Program-made: the position numbers and the translations under genes | Shown: positions 19,026 to 59,494 of the stretch, one piece after another | Layout of the letters: every line of letters begins with the position of its first letter | How positions within the stretch are numbered: the stretch's first letter is position 1 | Assembly (NCBI GenBank): GCA_036172245.1 | Contig: JAYWIR010000096.1 | Coordinates: forward strand, 62,001-126,000 | From: Raillietiella orientalis | Taxonomy: Eukaryota | Direction of reading: 5' to 3' | DNA: 64,000 nt | The notes under the pieces: generated by a model | Databases searched by the model: none | Told to the model about the DNA's origin: nothing | What the model saw: only the letters and a program-made list of their open reading frames with translations

Positions 19026-19055
19026 AATAAACGCCCCGGCGTGACCGGGTGAGAA
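19026..19055 (+). terminator. AATAAA signal plus terminal GC hairpin, representative copy
   Basis: AATAAAcgcCCCGGcgtgaCCGGGtgagaa; an equivalent occurs at every intact 3' end. Confidence 0.7.
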
Positions 19056-19069
19056 ATCTCTTGCGCTCG

Positions 19070-24938: not shown

Positions 24939-24952
24939 ATCTCTTGCGCTCG

Positions 24953-27226: not shown

Positions 27227-28134
27227 GATGTTGCTGGCATGTTTCTCGCCCTCCTCTTTCGTTTTAGCTCGGCGCTCTCCTTAATCGAGTGGCCCAGCAG
27301 CTTACAGTATCGGCAACTACGTGTTGGGCACTTTCGCGGACGGTGGCCTTCCTTCCCGCAGTTGCCGCAAGCGGGGGTTTGTCCGGCAAACCGGAGATAG
27401 ATGACGACGTCTCCGAGGAGGATCTGCGAAGAAATGAGACTCCGGTCGTCCATGGTGACGCGCGCCGTCGCGAGTCCGCAAGAGAGGCGCTCCACTTTAT
27501 CTATGGGATTCGCGCTCCTCCACATAGAGTGCAATGTGGTGAACGCCTATTGTGCAACAATGATGTCGCTTTCCGTTATTCTCGGCCGAATCCCCGAGAG
27601 CTGGACCACGAACGAGTAGTCCAGGGCCGAGGGAACGACCTCCTGATACCTGATTTTCAGGGGGGTTCGCAGCAGCCGCTGGACGAGGGCTGCATCCTTG
27701 CAGTGCACCTCCCAATGGCCTACCGCGCTCACTGGCATAAGCGCCAAGAGATCGTCTTCTCGGACCCCTACGCATTCCAGCTCGCTCCGGAACTGGTCGC
27801 CCGTCCCATTCCGGTACGCGGCAATGACCTTGTTGACCAGAGGGGGGTTGTAGCTTCTCGCGGCGTACGCCCGCAGTTCTGCCTCGTCGGATGGGGCTCC
27901 GTGAGCCGCCGCTGCCTTAGCAACGGCGGCAAAACTTCTCGCTGGAGGCGAGGGACGATCGCTGGAGGCTTTCGCTCCTCCCTAAGAAGGTCCTGCGACG
28001 CAGGGGGATTCCTCCACCTCCATTTCTGCAGGCACTGGCTTCATTTTCAAATGAAAAATCGCACCACACCCAACAGGAACAGATGCAAAGAAGCACCGAA
28101 GACAAAGCGCAAGAATACACGTCCGAACAATATA
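27227..28134 (-). mobile_element. 5' UTR plus partial degenerate ORF1 of a LINE (family W)
   Basis: GGACGTG at 28118-28124; YLRFAGQTPACGNCGKEGHRPRKC and CRYCKLLGHSIKE. Confidence 0.85.
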
Positions 28135-29100: not shown

Positions 29101-30484
29101 CACACTTGCCGCCGCGCGAACGCCGACGCCGCGACAAAGTCGCGAGCCCAGCGTGAGCAGCGACGACCGGGACTTGAACAAGGCGGCGGAAGAGTTGGCA
29201 GCCATGCTCCAGCAGCCTTCCAAGGCCCAGAAGAAGGCCTTGAGGCGTCCGGCTGAGGTGGAAGGACCGGAGACTTCCGAGTCCGAAGCCGAAGCCGGCA
29301 ACGCTCCGGCAGTCGCTCTCCCGAAGCGCAAACCGGGCCGCAAGGTAGGCAAACCGCGGCGCTCCGCACCTCCACCGGCGGAGGAGGAAATGCGGTCGGA
29401 CCACGACGACGGGGAGGCGATGTCCGCGAGGTCTCGCGGCTCCTCGCCGGAGGCGACCCTTGCCAAGCAGGATCCTCCAACCACCACCACAACCACCGAC
29501 GGACCGCCTCCTTGCGAGCAACAGCCCGTCGCAATGGACACACAACTCCTGCCTGCTGAACAGCAGGCGGAGGACGGTAAGCAAACACCATAAACACACC
29601 AATGCGTGGACTCTCCTCTTGCCGGTGACTGCGCGTAATCGGTTGGAACGTCAACGGGTTGCGCGACGACGGCAAGACGAGTGAAGTGGCCGCCAGCCTG
29701 CGGGACTTCGACCTGGCGCTTCTGCAGGAGACGCACGTGCTCCACGCAGCGGAGACCCAAGAAATCGAACGGATCGCAGGCGGGCGGCTCATATACGAGA
29801 ACGGGAGAGACCACACCCGCGGTGTCGCTTTCATGCTTAAGCCAGCCGTCGTTCATGCGCTGCGCGACGTGCATTTCGACGGGGAAGGTCAAATCGGGCA
29901 GCTTGTTGCCAAGTGGTCCGACGCGATCGAACTCGTCGTGACCAACGTGTACCCGCCCGGCACGAATCACAGGCGCGGGGAACGCACTGCGTTCTTCGAA
30001 GGCCTGCGGCGAGATTGGATGGCCGAAGCAGACATGCGAAAGGCGCACCTCATTGCCGGGGACTTTAACGTCCGCCTGCTGGCAGGTGCGCCCGACATTC
30101 GCGCACAGCTGGTCAACGAGATGTGCGCTGCCATGCACGCGCGCAACTTGTTGGCCGGTGACGCCGGGACGGAGACGAGGATCGACCACATGTTCCTCGA
30201 CAACCACCTGTGTTTGCGGGTGGGAAATCGAGGGGCAGTGCCATCCGAACTCTCCGACCATACCCGGCTCGTGGTAGAAATACACCCGCGCGGTAGAGGT
30301 TTACCCTCCACAGCGTGGCGTTTGCCAGGGGACTGGTTGCGCAACGCAGGAGCAGCGCAACATCTTCGCTCGTTCCTGCAAGGCTTCCATCTGCAGTCGC
30401 TCGCGGACTGGGACGACTTGAAGAGCTCAGACCGCGAGTTCTGCGACCAGTTTCCCATGAACCGTCTCCCTCCAGGTTTCGGCA
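29101..30484 (+). mobile_element. LINE fragment 'J': ORF1 C-terminus (stop 29593) and EN pseudogene (ATG 29602), cut at PPGFG
   Basis: WNVNGL, LQETH, NVYPP, GDFN, IDH, SDH, WDDLK, LPPGFG; an in-frame TGA lies near the ORF2 start. Confidence 0.88.
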
Positions 30485-30485
30485 A

Positions 30486-33426
30486 TGCCACCCGGATACG
30501 CCAAAACGTTTATTAGAAACATTTCAACGGTCAATACAGAACGTGGTACAAGGCCCCACTGACGGCCACGGAATGCCGGAACTGCCAAGACATGGGACGC
30601 AGCCCGGTGTGGCTCTCCTCGGCAGTGGAGGGGGATAAGGAAAAAACAAAAATAAAATAAAATAGAAAAACAAACCACAAAAGAAAGTTTAAAGGGGCGG
30701 GAAGGGATCACAGAAAACTGCTGGGAGCGCCCATCCTTTGCAGGATGCCTTCTAGTTCCATTTTCAGCTTTCCTAGATGGGGCCATCGGAAAGCTCTCAG
30801 CAGGAAGCGCGAAGCATACTCGATAACGTCCCTCACGATGCAGTCTTCATCTCCGGCATCACTCCAGGCCGCCACGATACCACGAATGCAGCAAAGTGCT
30901 GCCAGGGCTGCGGCTGGACTGAGAGCGTCCCGCACGAAGACAAGACTGAAGATACATTCAACATTGCCACCATCCAGTATCCGGAGGGCCGTTTTCAGAC
31001 GATCCCAAAAAATCCGGACGGCAGGGCATTTAACTAAGAGGTGGGGGAGCGACTCCCGCACCCCACACCTGGCACACGCAGAATTTACTCTTCCCCGCGT
31101 CCAGTGGAAGCGGCGCGCGTTGCAGGGTAGACCACAATGCAGCCACAGAAGCGCAGATTCTTGCCACTCCAGGGGGAGAATCCTGGATCCAAGTAGAACC
31201 GGGGGCCACTTCAGGTCATCCAATCGAATTCCGAGCAGCTCGCTCCATCTTCTTAATCCACGCGGCTGGAGAGTAGGGGTCGTTGCATCTGTCAACTCTC
31301 CCATGATCCAGTCGCTCATCATATTCTCTCTGCCTGCGATACGGCAGCAGACTTGCCACCTTGGCTTCCGGCTTTCGTAAAGCGCCCTTTGGAGAAAGGG
31401 CATCGCCGTAACAAGGGGTGTGCCTTCCGCCCACGTGCAACTCGGTGGAAATTCAAGAATTTCACGGAGAGTGCGGCGGGCGTATAAGCCGACTCGCAGG
31501 CGGTTCATCCGGTCTTCGCACCTGTGGTTCTGCTCAGCCCAGGTGCCAGCAGTCTCTTCCAGCCAAGCGAAGGAGTTGGCAGGGCCACAAACCATCCAGT
31601 CGTTCTCCTTTGCCAGGGTTGCCATGCGGCCGAGCATTAGACCGCATCTTCGAATCTTCCGGCCAGGGCACAGAAGAAACGATGCGAGTCCTTCGCAGCG
31701 GGACACACGCCTGGCCAGGAGGCAGGCCGGAATGCACCAAGCGGTGCTCCACATCTTCGCTGCGATGGCGAGGGTCCGCCATCGCAGCTGGATTTCCACG
31801 CGCTCCAGCGTCAGGATGCTGAGACCGCCGTCCCGACGCGGAGCGCACAAGTCCTTCAAAGGGACTCGGGGCCTCCCCTTGCCCGAAAGAGCTATGCGGA
31901 GGAGGTCCTTAGTCCGCTTTTCTGATTCCACGGGGGCGGGGCAAACAAAAAGCAAAGGGCGGAGGATGGGGGCCGCGAAGGCGTTCCGAACCGCGGCCCG
32001 TTCCGGCAAGTGAAACCTGCCCTCCAGGAACGGGCCGATCGCCGTCTCGACTTTCTGGAGGCAGCTGGACCACGCTTCCGCAGGGGAGAAGTCCCCCAAC
32101 GGCACATTGAGGTACTTGATGCACCTCACCGTGGGGATACCCAGACGGACCCAGTCCTGCTGCCCAGCCCACGTCGCTCCAACTGGCAACACTGACGACT
32201 TCGCCCTGTTAACCTGTAATCCGGCCCCACGGCTAAGCAGGTCGAAGAAATCTCCGACCGCCTTAGCCGGAATGGACATAGGTAAGAGGAGCAGAAGATC
32301 GTCGGCATACGCCGCTACGGCTGCCGTGCCGGCGCACGAGCTCGGCAAGGGGGCCAAAGTCACCCTGTACGCTTTCAGCACCAACTCAGCGTAGGTGCTA
32401 AAAAGCAGGGGGCTGAGGCTATCGCCCTGCCTTATGCCCCGCCGCACCGGCACGCCATACACCTTCTGTCCACTGAAAGTAATTGAGATTATCGCGTTCC
32501 GCCAGCAAGAGCGCAGGTAGGTAATCAAGGAGGGTGGGAAGCCCATGCGACCCAGGAGCTCCAAGAGGAGTTCCTGGTCAACACAGTCGAATGCCTTATG
32601 GAGGTCGACTGCGATCGCTAAGGCCCCCTTTCCCGCATGAAGGTCCCTTCCCTGTTTCACTGGCGGCCCCAAAGTAGGGTTGCAAATTTTCCCTTTCCCT
32701 TCTTTATTACTCCGCTGCGCGTGCATCCATGTGCTCGCGAAGAAGAGGTTGTCCTCCATACTTCGCCCGGGAACAGCGTAAGTCTGCTCCGGGCTAATTA
32801 TGGAATTGGACACCTGCCCCAATCGCGAAGCCCACAGCCCGGCAATCAACTTGGCGTCCGTGTTCACAATCGTGATCGGACGCCAGTTGCAAAGTTTCCT
32901 GAGGTCTCCTCCCTTCGGGAGGAGCCTCACCCTGACTGACCGAAACAAGGCGGAAACATCGCCTTCGTCTTGGTATCCCGTTGTCAACTCGAGCACCAGG
33001 GGGGCCAGCTCTTCCGCGGAACTCTGAAAGAACCCTGCGGGCAAGCCGTCCTCCCCTATCGCCTTACGCCTCTTGAGCCTTTTGATACCGGCTAGAATTT
33101 CACCGGTCGTGAAAGGCTCATCGAGGCTTTCTCCCTCCTCCTCCTTTATCGCCACGGAACCACTCATGAGCAATCCCCGCGAGGCGTCTTGTTCGGGTGG
33201 TGTTTTGGCGTAAAGGGAGGAATAAAAACACCGCACGAGTTTCCGTACGGCAGACGGGGACGATCTTTCCCGGCCCATGTCATCCAGCATGCTGGCGGAC
33301 CCGGATTGCCAGGCTTGTCGCTCGGCTCCGGCGCGGTATTCGGCCAGGCGACGGACATTGGGGTTCCTCTCGTGACGACTAGCGTGCAAATACGCGCGTT
33401 CGTTGCGAGCCCCTTTGCCGAATCCC
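30486..33426 (-). mobile_element. Z-related LINE 'K': open ORF2 from GFG to the stop at 30708, plus 3' UTR
   Basis: About 900 open codons with DLHKAFD, GIRQGDSLSP, YADD, CARCGVRESLPHLLVKC; AATAAA plus hairpin at about 30486-30514. Confidence 0.92.
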
Positions 33427-36400: not shown

Positions 36401-39124
36401 GGCGCTTGCTTCCGGATGACGCCCCGGCAATAGGGGAGGAGGAGATGGAAAGCCTCGACGAGCCTTTTACCACCGGCGAAATTCTCGCCGGTATCAAAAG
36501 GCTCAAGAGGCGTAAAGCTCCAGGGGAAGACGGCTTGCCCGCAAAGTTCTTTCAGAGCTTCGCGGAAGAGCTGGCACTCCTGCTGCTTAAGTTGATCAGG
36601 CTGATCCGAGACGAAGGCGATGTTCCCGCCTCGTTTCAATGAGCCAGAGTGAGGCTCCTTCCGAAAGGGGGAGACCTCAAGGATTTGAAGAACTGGCGTC
36701 CGATCACGATCGTGAATACGGACGCCAAGTTGATCGCAGGGCTATGGGCTTCGCGTCTGGGGTAGGTGGCAGAATCCGTAATTAGCCCAGAGCAGACTTA
36801 TGCTGTTCCCGGGCGAAGTATGGATGCCAACCTCTTCTTCGCAAGCACATGGGTGCACCTGCAGAGAAGAGAAAAGAAAGGGATAGGGAAAGTGGGCAAC
36901 CCCACATTAAGGCCGCTAGCCGGGCTGGGAAGGGACCCCCGGGCAAGGAAAGGGGCCCTAGCGCTCGCAGTCGATCTCCACAAGGCGTTCGATTGCGTAG
37001 ACCAGGAACTCCTCTTGGAGCTCCTGGGTCGCATGGGCTTTCCACCCTCTTTGATTTCCTACCTGCGCTCTTGCTGGCGGAATGCGATAATTACCGTCTC
37101 TTTCAGCGGTCACAAGGTGCATGGAGTGCCGGTGCAGCGGGGCATAAGGCAGGGAGATAGCCTAAGCCCCCTGGTCTTGAGCACCTATTTTGAGTTGGTG
37201 CTGAGAGCGTACAGGGTGAATCTGGTCCCATTGCCAAGCTCGTTCCCCGGCACGTCCGCCGTTGCAGCGTACGCCGACGATGTTCTACACTTGTTGCCAA
37301 TGTCCACCCCGGCAAAGGCGGTCGGAGACTTCTTCGATCTGCTCAGCCGCGGGACCGTACTGCAGGTTAACAGGGCGAATTCGTCGGTGGTGCCAATAGG
37401 TGCGGCGTGGGCAGGGCAGCAGGACTGGATCCGCTTGGGGATCCCCACGGGCAGGTGCTTCAAGCACCTTGGCGTTCCGTTGGGCGACTTCTGCGTTGCA
37501 GAAGCCTGGTAGGACCGTCTCCAAAAGGTGGAGTTGGCGATCGGCCCGTTCCGGAACCGCAAGTTTTACTTGCAGGAGCGGGCCGCGGTGTGGAACGCGT
37601 TCGCGGCCCCCCACCTTCGCCCCTTACTTTTTGTTTGCCCCGCCCCTCCCATCATACAGAGACGGACCAAAGCCCTCTAGAGGACTGCCCTTTGGGGCAC
37701 AGCGAGGTCGCGAGTCCGATTGAAATACTTGTGCGCTCCACGCAGGGATGGTGGCTTGGGCCTCCTTACGTTGGAGCGCATCCAAAATCAAACAACAATT
37801 CAAAATTTAGCCCTTGCGGCTTGCTTATGGATGACGCCATGGTGCGATCGGGCACGGCTCCTCGCGAGAAGAGCGACCGGCTGCAGAGGATTGTCCTCGA
37901 TCCTCGTGGCCTACCAGCGCAGCCTCTGCAACTGTGGCCCCGAGTTGCGCCAGATGGTCGCCCTGATGAGGGAGAATACCTGGATCTCCTGTCTCTCCGC
38001 TAACTGCACTGCCTGGCTTCAGGAGTCAGCTTACGCGTGGGCTAAGATCAACGACACGAGCGAGGCGGAATACAACTGCCTACGACGAGGACCGTACGCT
38101 CGACAGCCGCTGCAGGATATTATCAACACGCTTCGGAAATTTCTGTGGGCTTCTCTCAGCCCCCTTGCCCCCGTTCTGTCCTCCCTAAAAAACTTAAGGA
38201 GCAGAAACGAGCGGGCATCGTGGGAAGTGTCCTGCCTCAGCCGAGGCAGGAAATAACCTACAAATGCGTGGACGACTCGGGAGATCAAGGACGCTGCCAC
38301 CCCCAGCGTCCCGCCTCACGGACTTGCGCGCTAGGGAGTGCTGCGTGCAATACTCCCGGAGGAGTTGAAGTGGCCCTTAGCGTGTTGAAATTGCGGCACA
38401 CTTCCGTTGAAGTGGCAGGAGACGGCGTTGCTATTTCTGCACTGGGGACTGTTAAGCAGAGCACGCCTGTCTCACTGGACACTGGAGTATGTGGATGCCC
38501 GCTGTGGCGAGTGCGGAGAAAGAGATACCTTCCCGCATCTCATTCTCGAGTGTGTCGCCCTGAATGGTCTCTGGAGTCGAATCGCCCCAATCCTCCAGCT
38601 TCCAGTAGACGACCCTAAGGAAATTTACCGTCCCCTCTTTCTTTGCGACGGTCTGCGCCCCGCTGCGTCTCTAGCAGTCCTCTGCTGCGTGCGCGGCATT
38701 GTGCAAAGGTGGCACGCCAGAAGAAGAGGCTCAGGATGCAAAGACGCCATCCACTGGATGACGATCCCTTTAGAGATGGCGACAGGGTGGCGTCTACCTT
38801 TCACAATAAGAACCGAACTGGACTGCATCCTCAACATTATGCGGAGGACCGACTTAGGCGCCCAGTAATCCCTTCCCTGCCGCTTCCTTCTCCCCATACA
38901 ACGGTTTCCCTCCTTGTTATGTCTCTTTTTGTTTGATTTTGTTCTAGTTTTCCCTTCCCATGCGCCTCGGAAATGGACCTAACCGGTATATGCACCGGCA
39001 ACCGACAAGTCAACCAAGGTGGGAAAACCAAGTGTTTCCCACAATTAACTTTTGAAAGACTTTATTATCTAATTCTTGTAGAAAATTAGAATAATAAATG
39101 CCTCGGCATATCCTTGTGGCAAAC
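33427..39124 (+). mobile_element. Full-length but chimeric, degenerate LINE 'L' (Z-type 5' part, V-type 3' part)
   Basis: ORF1 33524-35282 and ORF2 35282-38868, both with stops; matches Z copies up to about 37425 and matches 57757-59462 after that. Confidence 0.88.
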
Positions 39125-44393: not shown

Positions 44394-45030
44394 GCCGTTA
44401 ATGCGCTGCGCGACGTGCACTTCGACGGGGAAGGTCAAATCGGACAGCTTGTTGCCAAGTGGTCCGACGCGATCGACCTCGTCGTGACCAACGTGTACGC
44501 GAGCGGCACGAGCCACAGGCGCGGGGAACGCACTGCGTTCTTCGAAGGCCTGCGGCGAGATTGGATGGCCGAAGCAGACATGCGAAAGGCGCACCTCATT
44601 GCCGGGGACTTTAACGTCCGCCTGCTGGCAGGTGCGCCCGACATTCGCGCACAGCTGGTCAACGAGATGTGCGCTGCCATGCACGCGCGCAACTTGTTGG
44701 CCGGTGACGCCGGGACGGAGACGAGGATCGACCACATGTTCCTCGACAACCACCTGTGTTCGCGGGTGGGAAATCGAGGGGCAGTGCCATCCGAAATTTC
44801 CGACCATCCCCGACTCGTGCTAGAAATACACCCGCGCGGTGGAGGTCCACCCTCCACAGCGTGGCGTTTGCCAGGGGACTGGTTGCTCCTCGCAGGAGCA
44901 GCGCAACTTCTTCGCTGCTTCCTGCAAGGCTTTCATCTGCAGTCGCTCGCCGACTGGGACGACTTGAAGAGCTCAGTCCGCGAGTTCTGCGACCAGCTTC
45001 CCCTGAACCGTCTTCCTCCAGGTTTCGGCG
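44394..45030 (+). pseudogene. EN fragment of the J family, cut at PPGFG
   Basis: Near-identical to about 29845-30484. Confidence 0.88.
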
Positions 45031-48000
45031 TTATCACCCGGGTACGCCCGGGGCGTTCATTTGGGAACTCTACATGCGTGGTACGAGAAACCACTACGGC
45101 CGCAAACAAAGGATCTGTAGGGACACCAGGACGCATCCCAGCGTGGCACTTACCGACAGCGAAGGGTGATAGGGATGAGACCAAAAACAAAAAAAAAAAA
45201 AGGAAACAAACAAAAAGAAGTTGGAGGACAGGGAATGGATCACTGGTCGCTGTGAGGAGGGCCCATCCGTCAAACCAAGCCCTCGAGGTCTGTCTGTATA
45301 TTCCCCAGTTGGGGCCATCCGGCAGCTTTCGGCAAGAAGCGTTGGACATACGGGATGACATCCCTCGCGTGTTGACCCACTCCTTCCTTGTTGGTGTCGC
45401 TCCATGCCGCCACGATGCCTCGGACGCAGCACAAGGCTGCAAGGGCTGCGGCTGGTTGCAGGGCGTCCTTCACGAAGAGGGGCCGAAGAACGTCTCTAGG
45501 GGAACTGCCCGTTGGGAGACCGAGGATCGTCCCAAACCGTTCCCAAAGAGGTCGGAGGGCAGCACAATCCGCAATAAGGTGGGGGCGCAAATCTCGCTCC
45601 CCTGAGCTGGCACACGCAGGATCCACAGCTCCCCTCGTCCACTGGAAGCGGCGTGCGATGCTGGGTAGACCCCAGTGCAACAGCACCAACGCGGACTCTT
45701 CCCACTTGAGGGGCAGGATCCTGGATTCTTTTATAACCGGGACCACTTCAGCTCATCCATGGGGATGGCGAGCAGCTCGCCCCATCTTAATAATCCTCGA
45801 GGCTGGACGCTCGTAGTCGTGGCGTCGGCCAGTTCTCCTGTTGTCCAGCCGCTCATCAACTTCTCGCGTCCCTCGATGCAGCAGGAGACTTGCCAACTCG
45901 GCGTCCGGCTGCTGTGAAGTGCCCTCCTCAGGAAGGGCAACGCCGTAGCTCGGCAGGTCGTCTCTGCCCACGTGAATCTTGCTGGACCCTCCAGGAGATT
46001 CCGCAGCATGCAGCGGGCGTAGGGGCTGCATCGGTGACGATTCCACGTTTCGTGGCTTTTCTGATTCACCACTGCCCACGTTCCGATGTTCTCCTCCAGC
46101 CAGGCGGGGGAGTTGGCGTGCAGCAAACCATCCAGCTGTTCTGCTTAGCCAATATTGCCATGCGCCCGAGCAGTAGGCCGCATCTTCGCATCTTCCGGCC
46201 ACGGCTCAGAAGAAAAGACGCGAGTGCATAGCACCGGGACAGACGAAGGGCCAGGAGGAGGGCCGGAATGCACCAAGGGGTGCTCCACATCTTCGCTGCG
46301 ATGACGAGGGTTCGCCACCGCAGTTGCTTATCCACGCGCTCAAGCGTCAGGAGGCAAAGACCGCCGTCCCGACGCGGAGCGCATAAGTCCTTCAGAGGGA
46401 CTCGGGGCCTCCCCTTGTCCCAAAGGGCGATACGGAGGAGGTGCTTTGTTTTCTTCTTTGATTCCACGGTGTGGAGGCAAACAAAAAGCAAGGGGCTGAG
46501 AATGGGGGCTCGAAGGCGTTTTAAACCGCGGCCCGTTTTGGCAAGTAAAACTTGCCTTTCAGGAACGGACCGATCGCCGTCTCGACTTTTTGGAGGCTGC
46601 TGGAGCACGCTTCCGCAGAAGAGTAGTCCCCCAATGGCACACCAAGGTACTTGAAGAACCTCGCCGTGGGGATACCTAGACAGACACAGTCCTGCAGCCC
46701 TGCTCACGCCGCACCTATTGGCACCACCGGCGACTTTGCCCTGTTGACCTGCAGTCCGGTCCCGCGGCTTAACAGATCGAAGAAGTCTCCGACCGCCTTT
46801 GCCGAGGTGGACATTGGCAACAAGAGCAGAACATCGTCGGCGTACGCTGCTACGGCGGGCGTGCCAGGGCACGAGCTCGGCAAGGGGGCCAAAGTCACCC
46901 TGTACGCTCTCAGCACCAACTCAAAGTAGGTGCTGAAGAGCAGGGGGCTGAGGCTATCCCCCTCCCTCATGTTCCGCCGCACCGGCACGCCATACACATT
47001 GTGACCGCTGAAAGAGACGGTAATCATCGCATTCCGCCAGCAAGAGCGCAGGTAGGACATTAGGGAGGGTGTCAAGCCCATGCGACCCAGGAGTTCCAAG
47101 AGCAGTTCCTGGTCTACACAGTCGAATGCCTTGTGAAGATCGACTGGGAGCGCTAAAGTCCTCTTCCCTACCCGGGGTTCCCTTCTTAACCCGGCTGGCG
47201 GCCCCAATGTGGGATTGGCGACTTTCCCTATCCCTTTCTTCTTTTTTCTCTTCAGGTGCACCCATGTGCTTGCGAAGAAGAGGTTGGCATCCATGCTTCG
47301 CACGGGAACAGCATAAGTCTGCTCCGGGCTAATTATGGATTGTGCCACCTGCCTTAGACGCGAAGCCCATAGCTCGGCAACTAACTTGGCGTCCGTATTC
47401 ACAATCTTGCTCGGACGCCAGTTGTTTAAATTCCTAAGGTCTCCCCCTTTTCGAAGGAGCCTCGCTCTGGCTGACCGAAACGAGGCGGGAACATTGCCTT
47501 CGTCACGGTTCAGCCTGATCAACTTAGTTAGCAGGGGTGCCAGCTCCTCCGCGAAAATCTGAAAGAACTTCGCGGGCAAACCGTTTTCCCCTGGAGCTTT
47601 ACGCCTCTTGAGCTTGTTGCTACCGGCGAGAATTTTGACAGTGGTAAAAGACTCGTCAAGGCTTTCCATGTCTTCCTCCCCTAATGCCGAGGCACCATCC
47701 GGAAGCAAGCTCCAAAAGGCGTCTGAATCCGTGGGCTCCTTGGCGTACAGGGAGGAATAAAAACTCTGCACGAGATGCCGTACGGACGCCAAGGACGAAC
47801 ATTACCGGCCCTGGTCGTCCAGCAAGCTGGCCGACCCGGGTTGCTAGGTTTAACGTTCGGCCCCGGCGCGGTACACGGCCAGGCTACGGAAATTAGGGGT
47901 TCTCTCAGACCTACGAGCCTGTAAATAGGCCCGATGGTTGCGAGGATCCTCGCCGAATCCGGGATGCAGGCGGTCCAGGGGGAACTGCTCGTAACACTCC

Positions 48001-50685
48001 CGGACCGAGGCCTTAACAAGGTGCCAGTCCGTAAGATTCTGGAGCGTGATGCCTATCAGGAATTCGGCAAGGTGTTCCTTCGCACCTAAGAGTAGCGTCC
48101 AGTACCCCGGCAGACGCCAATTCCTAGATGGCGGTCCGTTGTCGCGAGGATGCATCTCGAAAATAATTCGGGAATGGTCCGACAACGTCGACGCAACCCT
48201 TCCCCGTTTGCCGTCCCGTGAACACAGGTCAGCATCCAGGAAGACGTGGTCTTTGCTGCGGTCCATTCCCTCCTCGTCCGCCAACAAGTTGCACGTGCGT
48301 ATTGCAGCGCAGAACTCGTTCATCGCGTTCTCTTGTGTGTCTGGCTCACCTGTTAGTAGACGGAGCTTGAAATCTTCCGCTATCAGGTGAGCCTTCCGCA
48401 AGTTCGTGTTTGCCAGCCAGTCGCGCTTCAGGGATTCCAGCAACCTGGTGCGGTCGCTGTATCCCTGTTTACCGCTCGGGGCGTACACATTCGTGACGAT
48501 CAGGTCGATCGAGTCGGACCAGCTGAGAATCAGCTGACCGACCCGACCGTCGTCATCGAAGCTCACGCCCTTCACGGCAGCGTCGATGGCCGGCTTCACG
48601 AAGAACGCTACCCCGCAGGCTTTGCGAAGGCCGCATCGTCTATACAACCCACCTTCCGCGATCGTCTCGATCTCCTGGGCGTCTCCCGCGGTCATTACGT
48701 GGATCCCTTGCAGCAGGGCCAGCTCGAGCTCACGCAGGGTGTCGGCCGTATCTCGCCTGTTACCGTCGTCGCGCAGACCGTTGACGTTCCAACAGGCGGC
48801 GCGGATCCGACTGCGACTGGCGAGCCCAGGTGTTACTCTTGGGAAGATGGCGATGCGGCGTCCACCACCTGTCGGGGCGGGACGCTAGGTGGAGGAAAAG
48901 GGTCAGGCGCTGCGTGCACCTGGTCTCCCTCCTCCATGGGTAACGGCGCGTCGAGCGGGTCACCCTCAGGTGTGGTCGCGCCTACCTGTTGGCCCTCCTC
49001 CATGGGGGCGGGCTGTTCAGGCTCGGCGACTGCAGGGAGAACTTCGCCCCCCTGCTCAGTCTCCTCCATGGGGGTGGCCGGCTCGACGGCCTCGGAGCGT
49101 GGGAGTTCCCCCTCCGGGATTCGCACGCTACCGCTAACTTCCTGCTTCTACTGCTCGCTGGTGGGGGGGAAACGCCTACTGGGTTTCTGGGACTTGCGTC
49201 CCGACTTCCGGGGGGGTGCCTCCGAGGAGGAGGATCTGCTTTCGGCCCCCAGGTCCAACTCACCTGTGGGGGCCTTTTCCGCGGGAGCTGGCCTCCGCAC
49301 GTCCTTGCGTGAGGGGTTCTCACGCTCCGCCAGCGTGGCCGCGATCTCCTCCGCCGCCAGATCGAACACGGCGTCCTCGGCTCCGACCGTCGCTATTTCG
49401 CGCGGCTCAGCCTCTGTTTAAACAGAGGGTTCGCCGTCGTCAACTTCGGACGCGTCGGAAACGGTGAGGGAAGGCTCGTCGCCCAGCGTGGCAGTCTTGG
49501 GAACGGCTATGCGCTCTAGTGCCACCGTACATTCTCGCATGGTCTTGGAGCGCGGCCCAGGTTTTCTCGCCTTGGCGGCTGTCTTTTTACCGCTTTCGCG
49601 GGTTCCGCGGGGGACACCTTTTTCTCCTTTCTGGCCTTAACCAGCTGCCAGCCGTCTTGGACTCCCGCGTGTTCGGAAGGTTTTTCCTCCGACGCCTGTG
49701 TGGGAGCAACGGGGGCTTGCGGCTGCTAGCGGCCCGTGTCTTTTTTTGGTCTTTCGATCAATTTTCCGCGTTTTGCCTGCGCTTTCTTTGCGGCAGGCGG
49801 CGCCGGAGTGGGGCGTTTAGGGCATACGCGGCGCACGTGACCCTTCTCCCCGCATAAGTGGCACACAATGTTCGGGCACCGCTTGCGCTAGTGTCCTACT
49901 GCATCGCAGTAGCCACAAAAGCGGGGTTTCCCACGTAACAGAGGTCTACGACTTCGTCATTCACCTCTAGTTTATGGGGAAGCCCACTTTCCTTCTTTAC
50001 CGTAACACGCGCGGCATCATGCCCTCCGAAAAGGCTATCGTAGCCATCGAAGATGGTATCCTTTGGCCATAGCGCGTGAACGTCTCCGTATTTTCGCAGT
50101 TGATCACCAACCGCAGACCGCGTCATGCGGCTGGTGATTTCAGTCAGATAGACAACTACGGAGCGGTCCATCGTGACTGGTAGGGTTTTGCGTCCGTCCA
50201 CGTTCAGCGGGGTAGTAATCAAGCTTTGCGCCAAGGTGATGTCCTTGCAGACAACCTCGACGCGCTGACCTCCGCTGAGCACGGATAGACCGTGAAGATC
50301 CTTCTCTAATACGTTGGTGTTCTGCAACGCCTTTGAAAAAGCGCGTGCAGTTCGCCCGTCGAAGAGATTGCCTACCTGGTATACCAGACCGTGCTTGTAC
50401 ATAGCTCCCGGTAGGCCGCCATCTCGGCCATCGTTTCCGCGCTCGGCGCGGCCACCATGGCGCTCCAGCTCCTCGCGTTGAGCAGCGAGGGCGATTCCGG
50501 GGCGGAAGCCCCTGATTCTGTAGGCTGTGGGGATGGCCAAGGCTCCCCCACTCCAACCTCCTTCGTGGTGTACTCAGGCATCGCTGGCATCGCACACCAA
50601 CGATGTTCCACACCAAACAAAACAAGAAAAAACCGCTTTCTGTCGACTCACTCGAGAGCGAAGGAAAAACACGTCCACTCGCCAA
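45031..50685 (-). mobile_element. Full-length degenerate family-Z LINE ('Q')
   Basis: GGACGTG at 50670-50676; ORF1 to the stop at 48833; frameshifted ORF2 with YADD; terminal hairpin at 45031-45062. Confidence 0.92.
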
Positions 50686-50696
50686 GGGATTCGGCA

Positions 50697-53600
50697 TTAT
50701 CACCCGGGTACGCCCGGGGCGTTTATTAATAAACTTTACATACGTGGTACAAGGCCCCACCACGGCCGTAAACACAGGACCTGTCGGGACACAGGGACGC
50801 AGCCCGGCGTGGCACTCCCCGACAGCGAAGGGGGATGGGGATAAGACAAAAAGTAAAATAAAAAGAAACAAACAAAAAGAAGTTAAAGGGCAGGGAAGGG
50901 ATCACTGTTCGCTGTGAAGAGGGCCCATCCGTCGAACGAAGCCCTCGAGGTCAGTCCTCATATTCCCCAGCTGGAGCCATCCGGCAGCTCTTCGCAAGAA
51001 GCGTTGGGCATATGGGATGACATCCCTCGCGTGTTGACCCACTCCTTCCTTGTTGGTGTCGCTCCATGCCGCCACGATGCCTCGGACGCAGCACAAGGCT
51101 GCAAGGGCTGCGGCTGGTTGCAGGGCGTCCTTCACGAAGAGGGGCCGAAGAACGTCTCTAGGGGAACTGCCCGTTGGGAGACCGAGGATCGTCCCAAACC
51201 GTTCCCAAAGGGGACGAAGGGCAGCACAGTCCACAATAAGGTGGGAGAGCGATTCCCGCTCTCCGCACCTGACACACTCAGGATCCACAACTCCTCTTGT
51301 CCAGTGAGAGCGGCGTGCGTTGCAGGGTAAACCCCAATGCAACAACAGCAGCGCGGACTCTTTCCACTTAAGAAGCGGGATCCTGGATTCCTGAAGAAGC
51401 GGGGGCCACTTCAGCACATCCATAGCGATGGCCAGCAGCTCGCCCCATCTTCTTACTCCTCGCGGCTGGACGCTCGGGGTCGTGGCGTCTGCCAGTTCTC
51501 CTGTTGTTAAGCCGCTGATCAACTTTTCGCGTCCCTCGATGCAGCAGGAGACTTGCCACATAGGCGTCCGGCTGCTGTGAAGTGCCCTCTTCAGGAAAAG
51601 CAGCGCCGTAGCGAGACAGGTCGTCTCTGCCCACGTGCATCTTGCTGGACTCTCCAGGAGATTCCGCAGCGTGCATTGGGCGTAGGGGCTGCATCGGAGA
51701 CGATTCCACGTCTCGTGGCTTGTCTGGTTAACCACTGCCCACGTTCCAATATTTTCCTCCAGCCAGGCGGGGAGTTGGCGGGGCAGCAAACCATCCAGCT
51801 GTTCTCCTTGGCCAATGTTGCCATGCGCCCGAGCAGTAGGCCGCATCTTCGCATCTTCCGGCCACGGCTGTGAAGAAAAGACGCGAGTCCATCGCACCGG
51901 GACACACGGCTGGCCAGGAGGCGGGCTGAAGTGCACCAAGGGGTGCACCACATCTTCGCTGCGATGGCGAGGATTCGCCACCGCAGCTGCTTCTCCACGC
52001 GCTCCAGCGTCAGGAGGCCAAGACCGCCGTCCCGACGCGGAGCGCACATGTCCTTCAGTGGGACACGGGGCCTCCCCTTGCCCCAAAGGGCGATACGGAG
52101 GAGGTCCTTCGTCCTCTTCTTGGATTTCACGGTGGGAGGGCAAACAAAAACCAAAGGGCGGAGGATGGGGGCCGCGAAGGAGTTCCAAACCGCGGCCCGT
52201 TCCGGCAAGTGAAACTTGCCTTCCAGGAACGGGCCGATCGCCGTCTCGACTTTTTGGAGGCAGCTGGACCACGCTTCCGCAGGGGAGTAGTCCATCAACG
52301 GCACACCAAGGTACTTGAAGCACCTCGCCGTGGGGATCCCCAGACGGACCTAGTCCTGCTGCCCTGCCCACGCCGCACCTATTGGCACAACCGACGACTT
52401 CGCCCTGTTAACCTGCAGTCCGGTCCCGCTGCTGAGCAGATCGAAGAAGTCTCCGACCGCCTTCGCCGGGGTGGACATTGGCAACAAGAGCAGAAGATCG
52501 TCGTCGTACGCTGCTACGGCGGGCGTGCCGAGGCACGAGCTCGGCAAGGGGGCCAAAGTCACCCTGTACGCTCTCAGCACCAACTCAAAGTAGGTGCTAA
52601 AGAGCAGGGGGCTGAGGCTATCGCCCTGCATTATGCCCCTCCGCACCGGAACGCCATACACCTTCTGTCTACTGAAACAGACGGTAGTCATCGCATTCCG
52701 CCAGCAAGAGCGCAGGTAGGAAATCAGGGAGGGTGGGAAGCCCATGCGACCCAGGAGCTCCAAGAGGAGTTCCTGGTCTACACAGTCGAACGCCTTGTGG
52801 AGATCGACTGCGAGCGCTAGGGCCCCCTTCCCTGCTCGGGGGTCCCTTCCCAGCCCGGCTGGTGGCCCCAATGTGGGGTTGCCGACTTTCCCTATCCCTT
52901 TCTTCTCTCTTTTCTGCAGGTGCACCCATGTGCTTGCGAAGAAGAGGTTGGCATCCATACTTCGCCCGGGAACAGCATAAGTCTGCTCCGGGCTAATTTC
53001 GGATTCTGCCACCTGCCCCAGACGCGAAGCCCATAGCTTTGCTATCAACTTGGCGTCCGTATTCACGATGGTTATCGGACGCCAGTTCTTTAAATTCCTG
53101 AGGTCTCCCCCTTTCGGAAGGAGCCTCACTCTGGCTGACCGAAACGAGGCGGGAACATCGCCTTCGTCTCGGATCAGCCTGATCAACTTAAGCAGCAGGG
53201 GTGCCAGCTCTTCCGCGAAGCTCTGAAACAACTCCGCAGGCAAGCCGTCTTCCCCTGGAGCTTTACGCCTCTTGAGCCTTTTGATACCGGCGAGAATTTC
53301 GCCGGTGGTAAAATGCTCGTCGAGGCTTTCCATCTCCTCCTCCCCTATTGCCGGGGTGCCATCCGGAAGCAAGCGTCGAGAGGCGTTTCGATCCGGGGGC
53401 TCCCTGGCGTGAAGGAAGGAATAAGAACTCCGCACGAGATACCGTACCGACGCCGGGGACGAAGATTCCCGGCCCTGGTCGTCCAGCAAGCTGGCCGACC
53501 CGGATTGCCAGGCTTGGCGTTCGGCCCCGGCGCGGTTCTCGGACAGGCGACGGACATTAGGGGTTCTCTCGTACCTACGAGCCTGTAAATAGGCCCGGTG

Positions 53601-56470
53601 GTTGCGAGCACCCTCGCCGAATCCGGGGGGCAGGCGATCCAGGGGGAACTGCTCACAGAACTCGCGGACCGATTCCTTAAAAAGGTCCCAGTCCTGGAGA
53701 TTCCGGAGCGTGACGCCTCCCAGGTATTCGCGAAGGTGTTCCTTCGCACCTGAGAGTCGCGTCCATTCCTTCGCTAGCTGCCAATCCCTGGATGGCGGTC
53801 CTTTGTCGCAAGGCCGTATCTCGAAAATTAGCCGGGAATGGTCCGACAACGTCGACACAACCCTCCCCCGTTTGCCGACGCGTGAACACAGGTCAGCGTC
53901 CAGGAAGACGTGGTCGATGCTGCGGACCATTCCTTTCTCACCCGCGAACAAGTTGCGCGCACGCATGGCGGCGCACATTTCGTTCATCGCTTTCACTTGT
54001 GTTTCCGGCTCACCTGTTAGCAGGCGGAGATTCAAATCTCGCGCTATCAGGTGAGCCTTTCGCACATTGGTAACCGCCAGCCAGTCGCGCTTCAGGGTTT
54101 CCAGCAGCCTGGTGCGGTCGCGGTAACCCTGTTTGCCGCTGGGGCCATACACGTTTGTGAGGATTAGGTCGATCGAGTCGGACCAGCTGGGAATCAGCTG
54201 ACCGATCCGACCGTCGTCATCAAACCTCACGCCCTTTACGGCAGCGTCAATGGCCGGCTTCACGAAGAACGCGACCCCGCAGGTGTTGCGGAGGCCGCAT
54301 CGCCAATACAGCCGACCCCCCGCGATCGTCTCGATTTCCTGGGCGTCCGCCGCGGTGATCACGTGGATCTCCTGCAGCAGCGCCAGGTCGAGCTCACGCA
54401 GGTTGTCGGCTGTATGTCGCCTGTTGCCGTCGTCACGCAGCCCGTTGACGTTCCAACAGGCCGCGCGAATCCGACTGCGACTGGCGAGCCCAGGTGTTAG
54501 TCCAGGGAAAACGGCGATGCGGCGTCCGCCACCTGCTGGGACGGGACGCTAGGTGGAGGGGTAGGAGGGACAGGTACTGAAGGCACCTTTTCTTCCTCCT
54601 CCAACGGTGCCGGCGCGTCGGCCGGATCACCCGCACGTGGAGTCGCGCCTACCTGTTCGCCTTCCTCCATTTGTTCGGGCTGCTCAGGTTTCGCGACTGC
54701 AGGGAGGACTTCTCCCTCCTGCTCTCCCTCCTCCATGGGGGTGGCCGACTCGACGGCTTCCGGGCGTGGCTATTCCCCCTCCGGGATTCCCACGCTGCCG
54801 CTTCCTTCCGGTTTCTCCTCCTCGCTGGTGGAGGGGAGGCGCCTCCTGGGTTTCTGGGACTTGCGTGCCGACTTCCTGGGGGGTGCCTCCGAGGAGGAGG
54901 ATCCGCTTCCGGCCTTCAGGTCGCACTCACCTGCGGGGGCCTTCTCCGTCGGAGCCGACCTGCGTACGCCCTTGCGCGACGGGGTTTCGCGCTCGGCGAA
55001 CGTTGCTGCGAGCTCCCCCGCCGCTTTCTGGAAGGCCGCCTCTTCGCCAGCGGCGACCGTTGCCGCGGGCTGCTCCGCGACCTTATCGAGCGCGGCGTCA
55101 TCGTTGACGGCAAACGTTGCCGCGGGCTCCTCCGCGACTTTATCGAGCGCGGCGTCCTGGCTGTCGGCGCGCGAGTCTCGCGTCTCACCCTCTACACGTA
55201 GATTGGGCTCGTCCACGCGAGTATTCATCGCGTCCGCATCAGCTGTTCCGCGAACATTGCCGCGGGCGGACTCGGCAGGAACGGCTAAGCGTTCCAGTGC
55301 CACCGAGCATTCGCGGAGTTTTTTTTTTGAAAGCGGCGCGGCTTTTTTCTTGTTGCCAGCAGTTTTCTTCTCCGAATTTTCTTCTATCATCACTTTCTTT
55401 TTTTTCTCTTTTCTGGCCTGAACCAGCTGCCAACCCTCCTCCATTCCCGCGTCCACGGGAGCTATTTCCTCCGACGTCTGTACGGGAGGAAGGGAGGCTG
55501 GCAGTTGGGAACGGCCATTTTCGCGAGCTGGTCTTTCTACCAGCTTTCCACGTTTTCCCTGCGCCTTTTTGGCGGCAGGGGGCACCGGGGTGGGGCGCTT
55601 TTGGCACACGCGCCGAACGTGACCCTTTTCGCCGCATAGGTGGCACACAATGTTCGGGCACCTTTTTCGTAGATGCCCTACTGCATTGCAGTAGCCACAA
55701 AATTGGCGTTTTCCCACGTACCAGAGGTCCACCGCTTCTTGGCAGACCTCCAGCTTATGGGGAAGCGCACCACCCTCTTTTACCGTGATACGCGCCGCAG
55801 CTTGACCTCCGAAAAGGCTATTGTAGCCTTGGAAAATCGTGGACTTCGGCCACAACGCGTGCACTTCTCCGTGCTTTTCAAGCTGTTCTCGAAACGCTGA
55901 CCTCGTCATGCGACTGGAGATCCCAGTGAGATGGACCACCACCGAGCGGTCCATCGTTATAGGCAAGATCTTCCGACCATCAACGATCAGCGGTTCGGTG
56001 ATCAGGTGTCGGGCCAAGGTGATATCCTTGCATACCACCTCGACCCGCTGCCCGCCGCTGAAGACGCAGAGGCCGTCGAGATCTTTTTCAAAAATATTGG
56101 CGTCCTGCAGCGCCTTCGTAAAGGCGCGTGCAGTTCGCCCATCGAAAAGGTAGCCTACCTTGTAGACTAGCGAGGGTTCATACCCCGCTTTCTTGGAGGC
56201 TTCCATCTCGGCCATGGCTTCCACGCTAGGCGCGGCCACCATGGCGCTCTAGGATCTCGGCGTCGCCGGGGACGATTCCGGGGCGGATGCCCCTGATCCA
56301 GTAGGCTGTGTGGACGAACAAGCCTCCATCACGCCTACTTCCATCGCAGTGTCCTCTGGCAACGCTGCCATCCGACACCGACGATGTGCACGCACAAATC
56401 ACTTAAGAAGAAAAAACACTCGCTTTGCCACGCAGGCGGAGCGCAGGAAAAGCACGTCCGCTCTCCACAG
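50697..56470 (-). mobile_element. Full-length family-Z LINE ('R'), mildly degenerate, head-to-tail with Q
   Basis: GGACGTG at 56453-56459; ORF1 56371-54497 (CGYCNAVGHLRKRC, CHLCGEKGHVRRVC); ORF2 from 54497 with a stop at 52350 and a frameshift near 51770. Confidence 0.92.
54995..55165 (-). repeat. Three-fold 19-aa (57-nt) coding repeat in R ORF1
   Basis: DAALDKVAEEPAATFA / DAALDKVAEQPAATVA / EAAFQKAAGELAATFA; single copy in L and Q. Confidence 0.8.
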
Positions 56471-59462
56471 CGGGGATTCGGCAAAGGGCTGAGAAACGAA
56501 CGGGCATACCATCACGCCCGTCTTTATTATAGGACTCTCGGCGTTCGACGCCTAGCAAAGTATAAAGGTGGGGTTGAGCGACAGACCTCGCAATCCGTGT
56601 CGGCCAGCTTCCTGGACGCCCGAAGCCAAGAATGCTTGCTCCGTCAAAAATAAACCGCATCCTGCGGGAATATTACTTCTCCTTCTACGCGCGTAGAACA
56701 ACAGAGCGCGCCGTGGCGCAGCGCTTGCTGCCTGAAAGCGCCCTTGCGCAACAGGAGGGGCAGACACATCAAATCGAGGAGCCTTTCTCGATGGCGGAGA
56801 TCATCTCCGCCATCGGAAAGCTCAGAAAGAGGAAAGCCCCAGGGAAAGACGCTCTGCCCGCGGAGTTCTACCAAGGCTTCGTGGCGGTGCTGGCCAGCCA
56901 AGTGCATTGGCTTTGCATGCTGATCCGAGAACAAGGGGACGTCTCCAAAACGTTCCATTGAGCTAGTGTACGTCGCCTGCCGAAAGGAGGAGAAAATCGC
57001 AACGTAGGCAACTCGCCTCTCATCACAGTAGAGAATGCGGATGCGAAGTTGCTTGCCAAGCTTCGGGCTGAGCGACTGGGACAAGTGGCGGAATCCGTGG
57101 TGAGTCCGGAGCAGACATACGCTGTTCCCGGACGAAGCATGGAGGCCAACATGTTCCTTGCCAGTACATGGTGGCAGTTGCAACAAACCGAAAACCAGAA
57201 AGGTCAAGGGAATCCTGGATTCTCCTCTGAACAGTCAGAGGACGCCCTTCATGGAAGAGCCGCGCCCGGTGCCCCAGCGGTTGCAGTCGATCTGCGTAAA
57301 GGGTTCGATTGCGTCGATCAGGAACTCCTTCTGGAGTTCGTGGAACGGTTGGGATTCCCGGCTGTCTTTCGGGCTTACCTGCGCTCCTGTTGGCGCTTCG
57401 ATGTAATAAACATCTCTTTTAGCGGCCGTCACGTATACGGCATGCCTGTTCGGCGTGGCATAATCCAGAATGACAGTCTGAGCCCCTTGCTCATAAGCAT
57501 CTACTTCGAGCTGGTGCTGATGGCATACAAAGAGACTCTGGCAACCCTGCCAAGCTCGTGTCTCGGCACCCTTGCCCTTTCGGCTTACGCCGACGACCTT
57601 CTTCTCCCTCATTCCGGGTCCATGCCGACGTCGGCGCTTCAAGATTTCTTTGAGTTGCTACGCGGCGGGGCGGGCCTCTAGGTGAACGGGTAGAAATCTT
57701 CCATCGCTCCAACATGATTACTACTTTTAAACAAGATGGTGTGGGCCGGACGGCCGGACTGGATCCGCTTGGGGATCCCCACGGGCAGGTGCTTCAAGTA
57801 CCTTGGCGTTCCGTTTGGGGACTTCTGCGTTGCAGAAGGCTGGTCCGACCATCTCAAAAAGGTGGAGTTGGCGATTGGCCCATTCCAGAACGGCAAGTTT
57901 CACTTGCAGGAGCGGGACGCGGTGTGGAACGCGTTCGTGGCCCCCCTTCTTTGTTCCTTACTTTTGGTTTGCCACGCCCCTCCCATCATACAGAGACGGA
58001 CAAAACCCCTCTTGAGGACTGTTCTTTGGGGCACAGCGAGGTGGACAGTCCGATTGAAAGACTTGTGCGCTCCAGCGCGGGATGGTGACTTAGGCCTCCT
58101 TACGTTGGAGCGCATCAACTACAGACAACACTTCGGAAGTTAGCGCTTTCGGCTAGCTTATAAATGACGCCATGGTGCGAACCGGCACGGCTTGTCGCCA
58201 GAAGAGCGACTGGCTGCGAAGGATTGTCCTCGATCCTCGTGACCTACCAGCGTAGCCTCTCCAACTGTGGCCCCCATTTGCGCAAGATGGTAGCACTGAT
58301 GAGATAGAATACCTGGATTTCCTGCCTTCCCGCGCACTGCACTGCCTGGCTTCAGGTGTCAGACTCCTCGTGGGCTAAGATGGAGGGCACGAGCAAGGCG
58401 GAAAAGTACTGCCTACGACGAGGAACGTACGCTCGAAAGCCGCTGCAGGAGTTTATCAACACGCCTCGGAAGTTTCTGTGGGCTTCCTTTAGCTCCGTTG
58501 CCGCCGTTTTGTCCTTCCTGAAGAACACTAGGAGCAGCAACGAGCGGGCATCTTGGGATGTGTTCTGCCTCATCCGAGGCAGGAAAAAACCTTTAAAGGC
58601 GAGGACAACTTGGGAGCTAACGGACGCTGCCACTACGAGCGGCTCGCCTCACAGACTTGCGCGCTAGGGGGAGCTGCTCGCAATACCTCCGGAGGAGGTG
58701 AAGTGGCCCCTAACTTGTGGGGTTTGCGGCACACTTCCGTTGGAGTGGCAGGAGACGGCGTTGCTATTTCTGCACTGAAGACTGTTAAGAAGAGCACGCC
58801 TTTCTCACTGGACACTGGGGAATGTGGATGCCCGCTGTGTCAAGGGCGGAGAAAGAGAAACCTTCCCGCATCTCACTCTCAAGTGTGTCGCCCTGGATAG
58901 AATCTAGAGTCGAATCGCCCCAATCGTCCATCTTCCAGTAGGCGACCCTAAGGAAATTAACCGGCGCCTCTTTCTGCGTGACGGCCTGCGCCCTGCCGCG
59001 TCTCCAGCAGTCCGCTGCTACGTGCGCGGCATTGTGGAAAGGTGGCACGCCACAAGAAAAGGCCCAAGATGCAGGGACGCCATCCACTGAACGACGATCT
59101 CTTTAGAGAGGGCGACAAGGTGGCGTCTTCCTCCAACAGTAAAACCAGAAATTGACTGCACCGTAAACTGGATGCTGGGGACCAACCCAGGCGCACAGTG
59201 TTTTCCTACCTGCCCCCCTCCCACTCCCCCATATAACTGTTTTCCTCCCCGTTATTTTTTTTGTAGTTTCTTCTTGTTCTAGTTTTCCCTTCCCATGCGC
59301 CTCGGGAATGGACCTAACCGGTCTATTCACCGGCAACCGACACGTCAACCAAGGTAAGAAAACCCAGTGTTCCCCCACAGAAAACATTTTTTAAAGACTT
59401 AATTATCTAAATTTTTTTAAAAATTGGAATAATAAATGCCCCGCTATATCCGGGTGACAAAC
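56471..59462 (+). mobile_element. Degenerate family-V LINE ('S'): ORF2 from GFG onward plus 3' UTR
   Basis: GFGKGLRNERAY, PEQTYAVPGRSM, YADD, KYLG; ends aataaatgccccgctatatccgggtgacaaac. Confidence 0.88.
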
Positions 59463-59494
59463 AATAAAAGCCTTAGGCGTACCCGGGTGTAAAC
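59463..59494 (+). mobile_element. Isolated 32-bp U-type 3' terminus
   Basis: aataaaagccttaggcgtacccgggtgtaaac resembles 44051-44082 and has the same downstream flank. Confidence 0.75.

Follow-up and report, generated by a model that had tools for sequence, protein, structure and literature searches.

Preferential insertion of an L1-superfamily LINE into a conserved Gly-Phe-Gly codon motif of sibling LINEs in Raillietiella orientalis

The stretch of Raillietiella orientalis DNA analysed here, hereafter the window (64,000 nt; contig C96, JAYWIR010000096.1, positions 62001-126000, in an assembly of 210 Mb and 491 contigs), is made up of fragments of long interspersed nuclear elements (LINEs) nested in one another and includes two elements, Q and R, of a family designated Z, which lie in head-to-tail order, both on the minus strand, between three target words. 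The word, GGNTTYGGNG, represents Gly-Phe-Gly codons located just behind the endonuclease domain of open reading frame 2 (ORF2) and is present both in sibling LINEs and in the ORF2 of Q and R, which insert antisense after it. The targeting is real, independent and recurrent; at least five LINE lineages, Z among them, have served as hosts with insertion at the same base. The explanation that best accounts for the whole, with a probability of about three in four, combines an endonuclease preference for the word, annealing at the 5' junction, renewal of the target by each insertion and a particular history of the locus.

The three words and the two elements, read directly from the sequence, occupy the positions that an earlier note on this DNA had given; with their flanks and the elements used for comparison, they are as follows (contigs are labelled C and sampled loci L throughout).

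44396..45030, plus strand: host left flank, J-family LINE ORF2, 3' two-thirds of the endonuclease region, ending in Pro-Pro-Gly-Phe-Gly codons
45021..45030, plus strand: left target word GGTTTCGGCG, the native J word
45031..50686, minus strand: element Q, a full-length LINE of family Z whose 5' end is Q-type; several stops interrupt ORF1 and ORF2
45035..45062, minus strand: 3' terminal motif of Q, a degenerate AATAAA, then a 6-bp hairpin, then four bases, without poly(A)
47951..47960, minus strand: Gly-Phe-Gly word in Q's own ORF2, an empty target
50670..50676, minus strand: GGACGTG box in the Q leader, a candidate downstream promoter element (DPE) that fits the consensus for Drosophila LINEs (PMC1636488)
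50686..50696, plus strand: middle word GGGATTCGGCA, 5' junction of Q and later target of R
50697..56472, minus strand: element R, a full-length LINE of family Z whose 5' end is R-type
54770-56248, minus strand: R ORF1, an open stretch with CCHC knuckles
52350-54548, minus strand: R ORF2, endonuclease and reverse transcriptase, going on in another frame at 50902-52407
53615..53624, minus strand: Gly-Phe-Gly word in R's own ORF2, an empty target
56453..56459, minus strand: GGACGTG box in the R leader, a candidate DPE-like element
56472..56483, plus strand: right word GGGGATTCGGCA, 5' junction of R
56484..59460, plus strand: host right flank, J-family linker, reverse transcriptase and 3' end, resuming the reading frame interrupted at 45030, with several stops
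29850..30484, plus strand: second J endonuclease copy, for comparison, cut at the same base as the copy ending at 45030
30485..33416, minus strand: element K, 3' half of a sister subfamily, inside the second J copy

The first-strand nick for Q would lie between 45030 and 45031. The last base of the middle word is A, a CG-to-CA change common to the right word, and K in turn contains, in its Gly-Phe-Gly word, a Q-type element of reverse orientation that interrupts it from 33416. The 3' hairpin is barely above shuffles (z -1.5 and -2.0, the latter for Q and not strong) and is missing in K.

The J endonuclease copies ending at 30484 and 45030 carry K and Q respectively, and the earlier note had proposed that two distinguishable elements had hit them independently, in which case the hosts should be much more alike than the inserts. 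The alignment agrees with this proposal: the hosts are 95.1% identical over 635 nt, whereas K and Q are distinguishable elements with 76.8% identity over 2897 nt and 72.5% in the 3' untranslated region. The genome-wide empty and filled sites and the scattering of insert types over hosts lead to the same conclusion. In empty J copies the sequence of 44800-45030 joins that of 56484 onwards directly and, therefore, both flanks belong to family J. The 30 best of 40 scored J left flanks, among them that of the window, comprise 21 filled at precisely this base by the 3' end of a Z or K element, 8 empty ones (3 of which run into a contig end) and 1 of another kind; the exact site pattern in J or a close subfamily occurs at 32 places which, sorted by hand, are 9 empty and 23 filled, the latter with 11 Q-type, 4 R-type and 7 K-type 5' ends and 1 variant. 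In 22 filled J copies host identity averages 95-97% in each pair class, and the inserts are 74-75% identical between K and Z types and 88-92% between Z types. No insert type is clustered beyond shuffled labels on a tree of 31 left flanks, which is poorly resolved (3 starred branches), and two sister J copies, one empty (L080) and one filled (L178), are 97.5% identical on the left and 99.2% on the right. A set of eight Q-type copies, with a mutual identity of about 98%, is distributed over J, K-type and other hosts and over tandems; L070 and L075 have one junction in common and are probably one event.

A spread of one or few ancient events by segmental duplication or recombination in repeat islands, with no recurrent targeting, would suit the position of the arrays in repeat-rich contigs and at contig ends, the existence of recombinant elements and duplicated junctions (C119, C129, C130) and the recombined appearance of this very locus. 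It is nevertheless highly improbable, given that the cut falls at the homologous base in at least five host lineages, that inserts 74-98% identical are found in hosts of 95-97%, that the insert labels are unclustered on the host tree, and that an empty and a filled copy form a sister pair.

Q, R, K, J and their neighbours code for an APE endonuclease plus a reverse transcriptase, with Pfam matches to Exo_endo_phos, RVT_1 and, weakly, zf-CCHC (E 5e-4, just under the cut-off); the closest solved sequence is human L1 ORF2p (E 9e-46), with R2 at 3e-14. By their coding sequence, Q and R are L1-superfamily (APE-RT) LINEs: the endonuclease is N-terminal in ORF2 and the reverse transcriptase nearest to that of L1, a separate ORF1 has CCHC knuckles, ORF2 has a C-terminal CCHC motif (CxxC-x8-H-x4-C), and both 5' truncations and target-site duplications of 12-14 nt are present. 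A 3' poly(A) tail is typical of L1 proper, and none was found at any junction inspected. In two young Q-type copies ORF2 is open over 1215 and 1221 aa. Q and R are not near-identical, their identity being 88.7% in the 3' half, 85.4% in the endonuclease and 77.0% in part of ORF1. Protein searches outside this genome gave two relatives at 69-70% identity and all others below 40%, the nearest of which are 30-39% identical and bear no clade labels; a metagenome scan gave 7 related loci at 26-36% identity, and the Atlas gave generic endonuclease and reverse transcriptase clusters. Look-alikes were not found in the other genomes compared.

The strength of the site preference was assessed with several samples. 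With a flank-free query all of the 30 best R-like 3' ends, a sample which favours young copies, adjoin the word within two mismatches; the absolute specificity suggested by this result was dropped after less biased patterns showed off-word ends. A pattern of the 3' motif, which omits Q-type tandems and takes in sister subfamilies, has 136 places, and a hand count of the first 100 listed gave 40 exact words, 16 words with a single mismatch, 4 words with two mismatches and 40 other sequences, of which 25 nevertheless end in GGNG; a slightly shorter pattern has 83 exact places listed genome-wide. By our own estimate from base composition, an exact match would occur at about 4 per 100,000 positions, and the 56 of 100 listed ends within one mismatch exceed the threshold of 20% of flanks used for target preference in PMC4494074. 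In the window, GGNTTYGGC is present 19 times, compared with 8.05 +/- 2.99 in shuffles, and 0 of 100 shuffles reach 19. The site-specific insertion claimed earlier thus stands as regards the base-exact, repeated use of the word and is weakened to a strong preference by the 40 of 100 listed ends that are not within two mismatches. This preference is accompanied by leakage into G-rich sites, where copies are truncated or broken: among 20 off-target places fetched, 12 align to the R 3' end over at least 100 nt at 76-95% and 8 keep only the last 19-27 nt, and the 5' motif is absent within 6.5 kb at all 20.

The source of this preference would be the endonuclease of Z and of its sister K, which would nick preferentially after GGNTTYGGNG. 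It is distinctly improbable that the word is instead selected by RNA-DNA pairing, through a read-through 3' tail complementary to the nicked strand, with an endonuclease merely specific for G-rich DNA. Such pairing would agree with the lack of poly(A) at the junctions, with tandem copies as providers of the tail and with the nicking of the L1 endonuclease in vitro, which is looser than integration (PMC1950540); however, off-target junctions are as precise and have no left-over word, and their -2 position is mostly G where the tail would favour C (L205, L217).

Some further observations regard the sites of insertion. The micro-insertions of 19-27 nt end at or just past the 3' hairpin, lie in non-LINE G-rich DNA (L198, L200, L202, L204, L210, L211, L213, L215) and in several cases carry full duplications. 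Two Z-related copies, L207 (C5:2582223) and L212 (C13:2579632), occupy the same secondary position in another LINE family, equivalent to window position 7289. Five of the eight Gly-Phe-Gly words in this part of the window (30484, 33417, 36163, 50696, 56483) have as last base A and not G, which is rare elsewhere, and two of these five represent one event by duplication. A hypervariability of J bases +2 to +6 as an escape from targeting (10/160 against 107/3968, p 0.024) was rejected, as 10 of 115 background windows are equally variable.

The junctions show letters of the target in some cases and letters of the donor in others. Off-target truncated copies have duplications of 12-14 nt (13 at L199, 12 at L206 and, by eye, 14 at L200, 13 at L204 and 14 at L213), the off-target copy L217 has 16 nt with microhomology, and two variant 5' ends (L026, C76) retain 12 nt of J; in full-length copies at the word the match to the target is usually only 7-10 nt. 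Target letters are copied at C53, where the older element is flanked left and right by the host variant (changed at -8 and -2), and in the window, where the rare A at -1, found at 3 of 68 distinct 5' ends listed, all three of them here, stands on both sides of R. Elsewhere the letters of the donor frequently prevail: J hosts have T at -8, and A is found instead at 7/11 Q-type and 4/4 R-type junctions; the reverse case at the same position, left A and right T, occurs at C129, C90 and C74. At C53 the young copy, 98% like its peers as against 94.7% for the left copy, has the canonical word at its end although its target had other letters at -8 and -2, C114 similarly shows the canonical word restored over -3/-6 mismatches, and in L152 the element's word and the duplication lie side by side. 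The simplest reading of these letters is that the RNA leader holds the word, that the end of the complementary DNA (cDNA) anneals to the 12-14-nt overhang and that either strand can win.

A plain target-site duplication, as in ancestral-type R1 tandems, would require no word in the RNA: the element would have a fixed GGGA end, about 7 nt would be duplicated and the duplicate would be reused. The last 7 nt are in fact equal on both sides at most junctions, both C53 and this window (the shared A at -1) show copied target variants, and tandem R1 elements are formed in the duplicate (Stage and Eickbush, PMC2718515). A fixed 7-nt duplication was also our first reading, dropped after the array junctions and the off-target duplications, which measure 12-14 nt and not 7. 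The left A and right T at three loci, the canonical word restored over mismatches at -2 in C53 and at -3/-6 in C114, and the doubled word at L152 likewise make a plain duplication unlikely, though it is the strongest of the alternatives considered.

In the preferred explanation, Z would go in antisense by target-primed reverse transcription, with a second nick 12-14 nt from the first. In full-length copies the RNA leader would bear the target word, so that the cDNA end could anneal to the overhang, and the mixed duplex would be resolved to the letters of the target or of the donor. Each full-length insertion would leave a good target at its 5' end and, therefore, later copies would pile up there, generating head-to-tail arrays. 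A more ambitious version, to which we give somewhat less than an even chance, is that the target renews itself: transcription would start in the flank (with the DPE in the element and the initiator in the target), the RNA would carry the donor word plus a few flank bases, the word would be written over the recipient site on integration, and even mutated targets would be repaired; with sister families each hitting another conserved codon motif, the result would be a closed community of mutually disabling LINEs having separately evolved site preferences on near-identical APE scaffolds. The GGACGTG box begins 21 nt (Q and K types) or 25 nt (R type) inside the nick; in J, the flank of Q and K types has a TCAG whose A is at a distance of 28 from the box, which is not the case for the R type. 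If 28 positions are counted backwards from the box, the putative start would fall in the flank, beyond the word by 7 nt in Q- and K-type elements and by 3 nt in R-type ones.

The first base to the right of the word was also considered. It is G in 9/12 Q-type-filled J copies and in 4/22 others (Fisher p 0.002; J right flanks L061-L090 and L178-L190), is not clustered on the host tree and differs between the empty and filled sisters L080 and L178; the G is common to the two members of one sister pair whose inserts differ, and no tandem has it. Q-type copies may either prefer this variant or rewrite the first flank base from the donor.

The history of the locus was reconstructed from private differences, counted against the majority of the nearest relatives in the sample. 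These amount to 15/635 (2.4%) in the left J flank, 429/5250 (8.2%) in Q, 123/5500 (2.2%) in R and 145/1500 (9.7%; 56501-58000) in the right J flank, the two flanks differing with Fisher p 3.5e-9 (11/500 against 145/1500); the second J copy (29850..30484) has 2.7%. Q has about 90% identity with the eight young relatives, themselves about 98% identical to one another. The resemblance of empty J copies is 93-97% to the left flank and 86-88% to the right one (per-copy values, L077 being mis-aligned on its left side, with 2 nt), and stops are many in Q and the right flank and few in R and the left flank. Judged by these divergences, Q is old and R is young, and from the divergences of flanks and elements together with the stop counts the following order is derived: old Q would have entered an old J copy, young R would then have entered the 5' word of Q, and recombination or conversion close to the 3' junction of Q would later have replaced the left flank with that of a younger J. 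The join with this younger J, probably an exchange between arrays, would lie between ~44750 and 45057; the J now present at 44396-45030 is thus probably not the original host of Q, which is tied to J by its right flank. The earlier note had reasoned that, since the left and right words differ, the flanks may derive from different host copies. The reasoning fails, in that single insertions into J usually give the same pattern of left GGT and right GGA, presumably since a full-length copy brings with its 5' end a word of its own, which can replace that of the target; the conclusion is probably right on the different ground of the flank ages (2.4% against 9.7%).

Several points weigh against the explanation proposed. 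The specificity is incomplete, with 40 of the first 100 listed 3' ends (of 136) off the word, mostly in G-rich DNA, and part of these off-word ends belongs to sister subfamilies, so that this share mixes Z proper with its sisters; the DNA-search samples, being the best-scoring 30 of 40, favour young copies. The carriage of the word by the donor rests on about six loci, each explicable by point mutation or later gene conversion. As for the history of the locus, the differences in the left flank are graded, 4 falling in 355 nt and 11 in the last 280 nt, so that the breakpoint is not sharp; moreover, divergence from sampled relatives is read as age, which local mutation rate or conversion could bias.

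Several sister LINE families make tandems as well. In a biased sample of loci, 29/108 distinct 3' ends were not scored as flanked by Gly-Phe-Gly, and most of these belong to sister families which share the same 3' motif and have their own recurring sites in endonuclease, linker, reverse transcriptase or ORF1 codons. The sites in sibling coding sequence include endonuclease AQEI (antisense), endonuclease DFNLRL (sense), reverse transcriptase HKAF (antisense), J ORF1 (sense) and others. Sister-family ends in the window are those at 19051, 24934 and 60044 (family B), 39118 and 59456 (J) and 44077 and 59489 (M), and further loci are L126, L127, L102 and L141; L149, L155, L160 and L069; L042, L050, L052, L056, L059, L077 and L132; and L098. 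At 59430-59493 two 3' motifs lie in series, a J 3' end followed directly by a 30-nt M-type 3' end, past which the same ORF1-type host sequence is found as at 44081. Two tandem units of ~5.9 kb, 94% identical, occupy 13635-25436 and each ends in a family-B element, which has an open ORF2 of 1200 aa at 15097-18699.

Recombinants are present in the window at 33416-39124, where element L changes from Z-type to J-type at 37779, and in the arrays of C119, C129, C74 and C99; K-type 3' halves are joined with Q-type 5' halves and internal deletions occur around the Gly-Phe-Gly site. The nests cluster at the ends of large contigs (C4, C9, C26, C29, C32, C35, C49) and fill many small ones (C72-C151), as expected of unassembled heterochromatic blocks. 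A role of the arrays in replacing telomeres was rejected, as a TTAGG telomeric repeat array exists at the end of contig C13 and the array orientations are mixed. The 18S gene of the assembly has an arthropod-like appearance.

The sequence-specific LINEs known so far have their havens in ribosomal DNA (rDNA), small RNA genes, simple repeats and other classes of transposons; in the present case a protein-coding motif, which competing LINEs could change only with difficulty, serves this purpose. Each hit disables a rival or sibling and makes a new site, which explains how the nests grow. The families offer a natural series for studying the evolution of APE endonuclease specificity, and the existence of copies with open ORF1 and ORF2 makes the model open to in vitro tests; intact copies lie on C4 (about 21765-27426) and C53 (about 290818-296482). 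If the word is carried by the RNA, an L1-group element would here provide a clear example of homology-guided joining at the 5' end, of importance to those who develop tools of site-directed LINE integration.

With respect to known systems, Z resembles in its targeting the Tx1 clade, APE-RT LINEs of the L1 group which in animals have one preferred site inside another transposable element: Xenopus Tx1 inserts in the piggyBac element Tx1D, crocodilian Tx1-Mar in Mariner-N4_AMi, Tx1-8_Crp and Tx1-4_AMi sit in long terminal repeat (LTR) elements, and Keno, Kibi and Koshi are further target-specific members (PMC4494074). The likeness concerns targeting. Here, by contrast, the target is a codon motif common to sibling LINE lineages and to the element itself, and the portions of PMC4494074 drawn upon name no LINE coding target for Tx1; tandem copies around a duplication are known for SINEU-3 (PMC4494074). 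No published LINE targeting the coding sequence of other LINE families was found, although the supplements of PMC4494074, Repbase and subscription papers may list such Tx1 targets. The combination of Tx1-like targeting, Zepp-like nesting and R1-like tandems was likewise not found in the literature searched.

Zepp of Coccomyxa C-169 and ZeppL of Chlamydomonas are L1-type LINEs which insert into existing copies and form nested clusters (PMC3446292, PMC8226300), and Z is similarly found in the ORF2 word of Z itself (L116, L117, L102) and in K (33416). Zepp arrays consist mostly of 5'-truncated 3' ends, with one cluster per chromosome, and belong to green algae (PMC3446292, PMC8226300); the array copies described here are instead mostly full-length (in the fetched arrays, sampled partly by 5' ends), hit other families at the homologous codon and alternate in orientation, in a genome with TTAGG telomeric repeats.

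The internal DPE promoters of the Drosophila elements Doc, F, G, I and jockey (PMC1636488) have a putative counterpart in the GGACGTG(T/C) box near the 5' end, which fits their consensus; the difference is that the start computed here would fall in the flank, outside the word. In Drosophila, R1 tandems arise when a new copy enters the 14-bp duplicate that borders the resident copy on its 5' side, and melanogaster-type R1 transcripts bear upstream target sequence that has been proposed to anneal, giving precise 5' junctions (Stage and Eickbush, PMC2718515). Tandems in the 5' duplicate, carried target sequence and leakage into non-target sites (PMC2718515) are thus points of likeness, and both in the window and at C53 the older copy lies on the left with the younger one at its 5' word. 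R1 belongs to another clade, targets 28S rDNA and its carried sequence goes with a target deletion (PMC2718515); in Z the flanks are LINE ORF2 sequences, with no 28S rDNA site among them, and the carried word would overlap the duplication and renew the site. The resemblance to R1 tandems is a likeness of mechanism and not of membership, and each ingredient of the system has its precedent: another transposon as target in Tx1, self-nesting in Zepp, and tandems with carried target sequence in R1.

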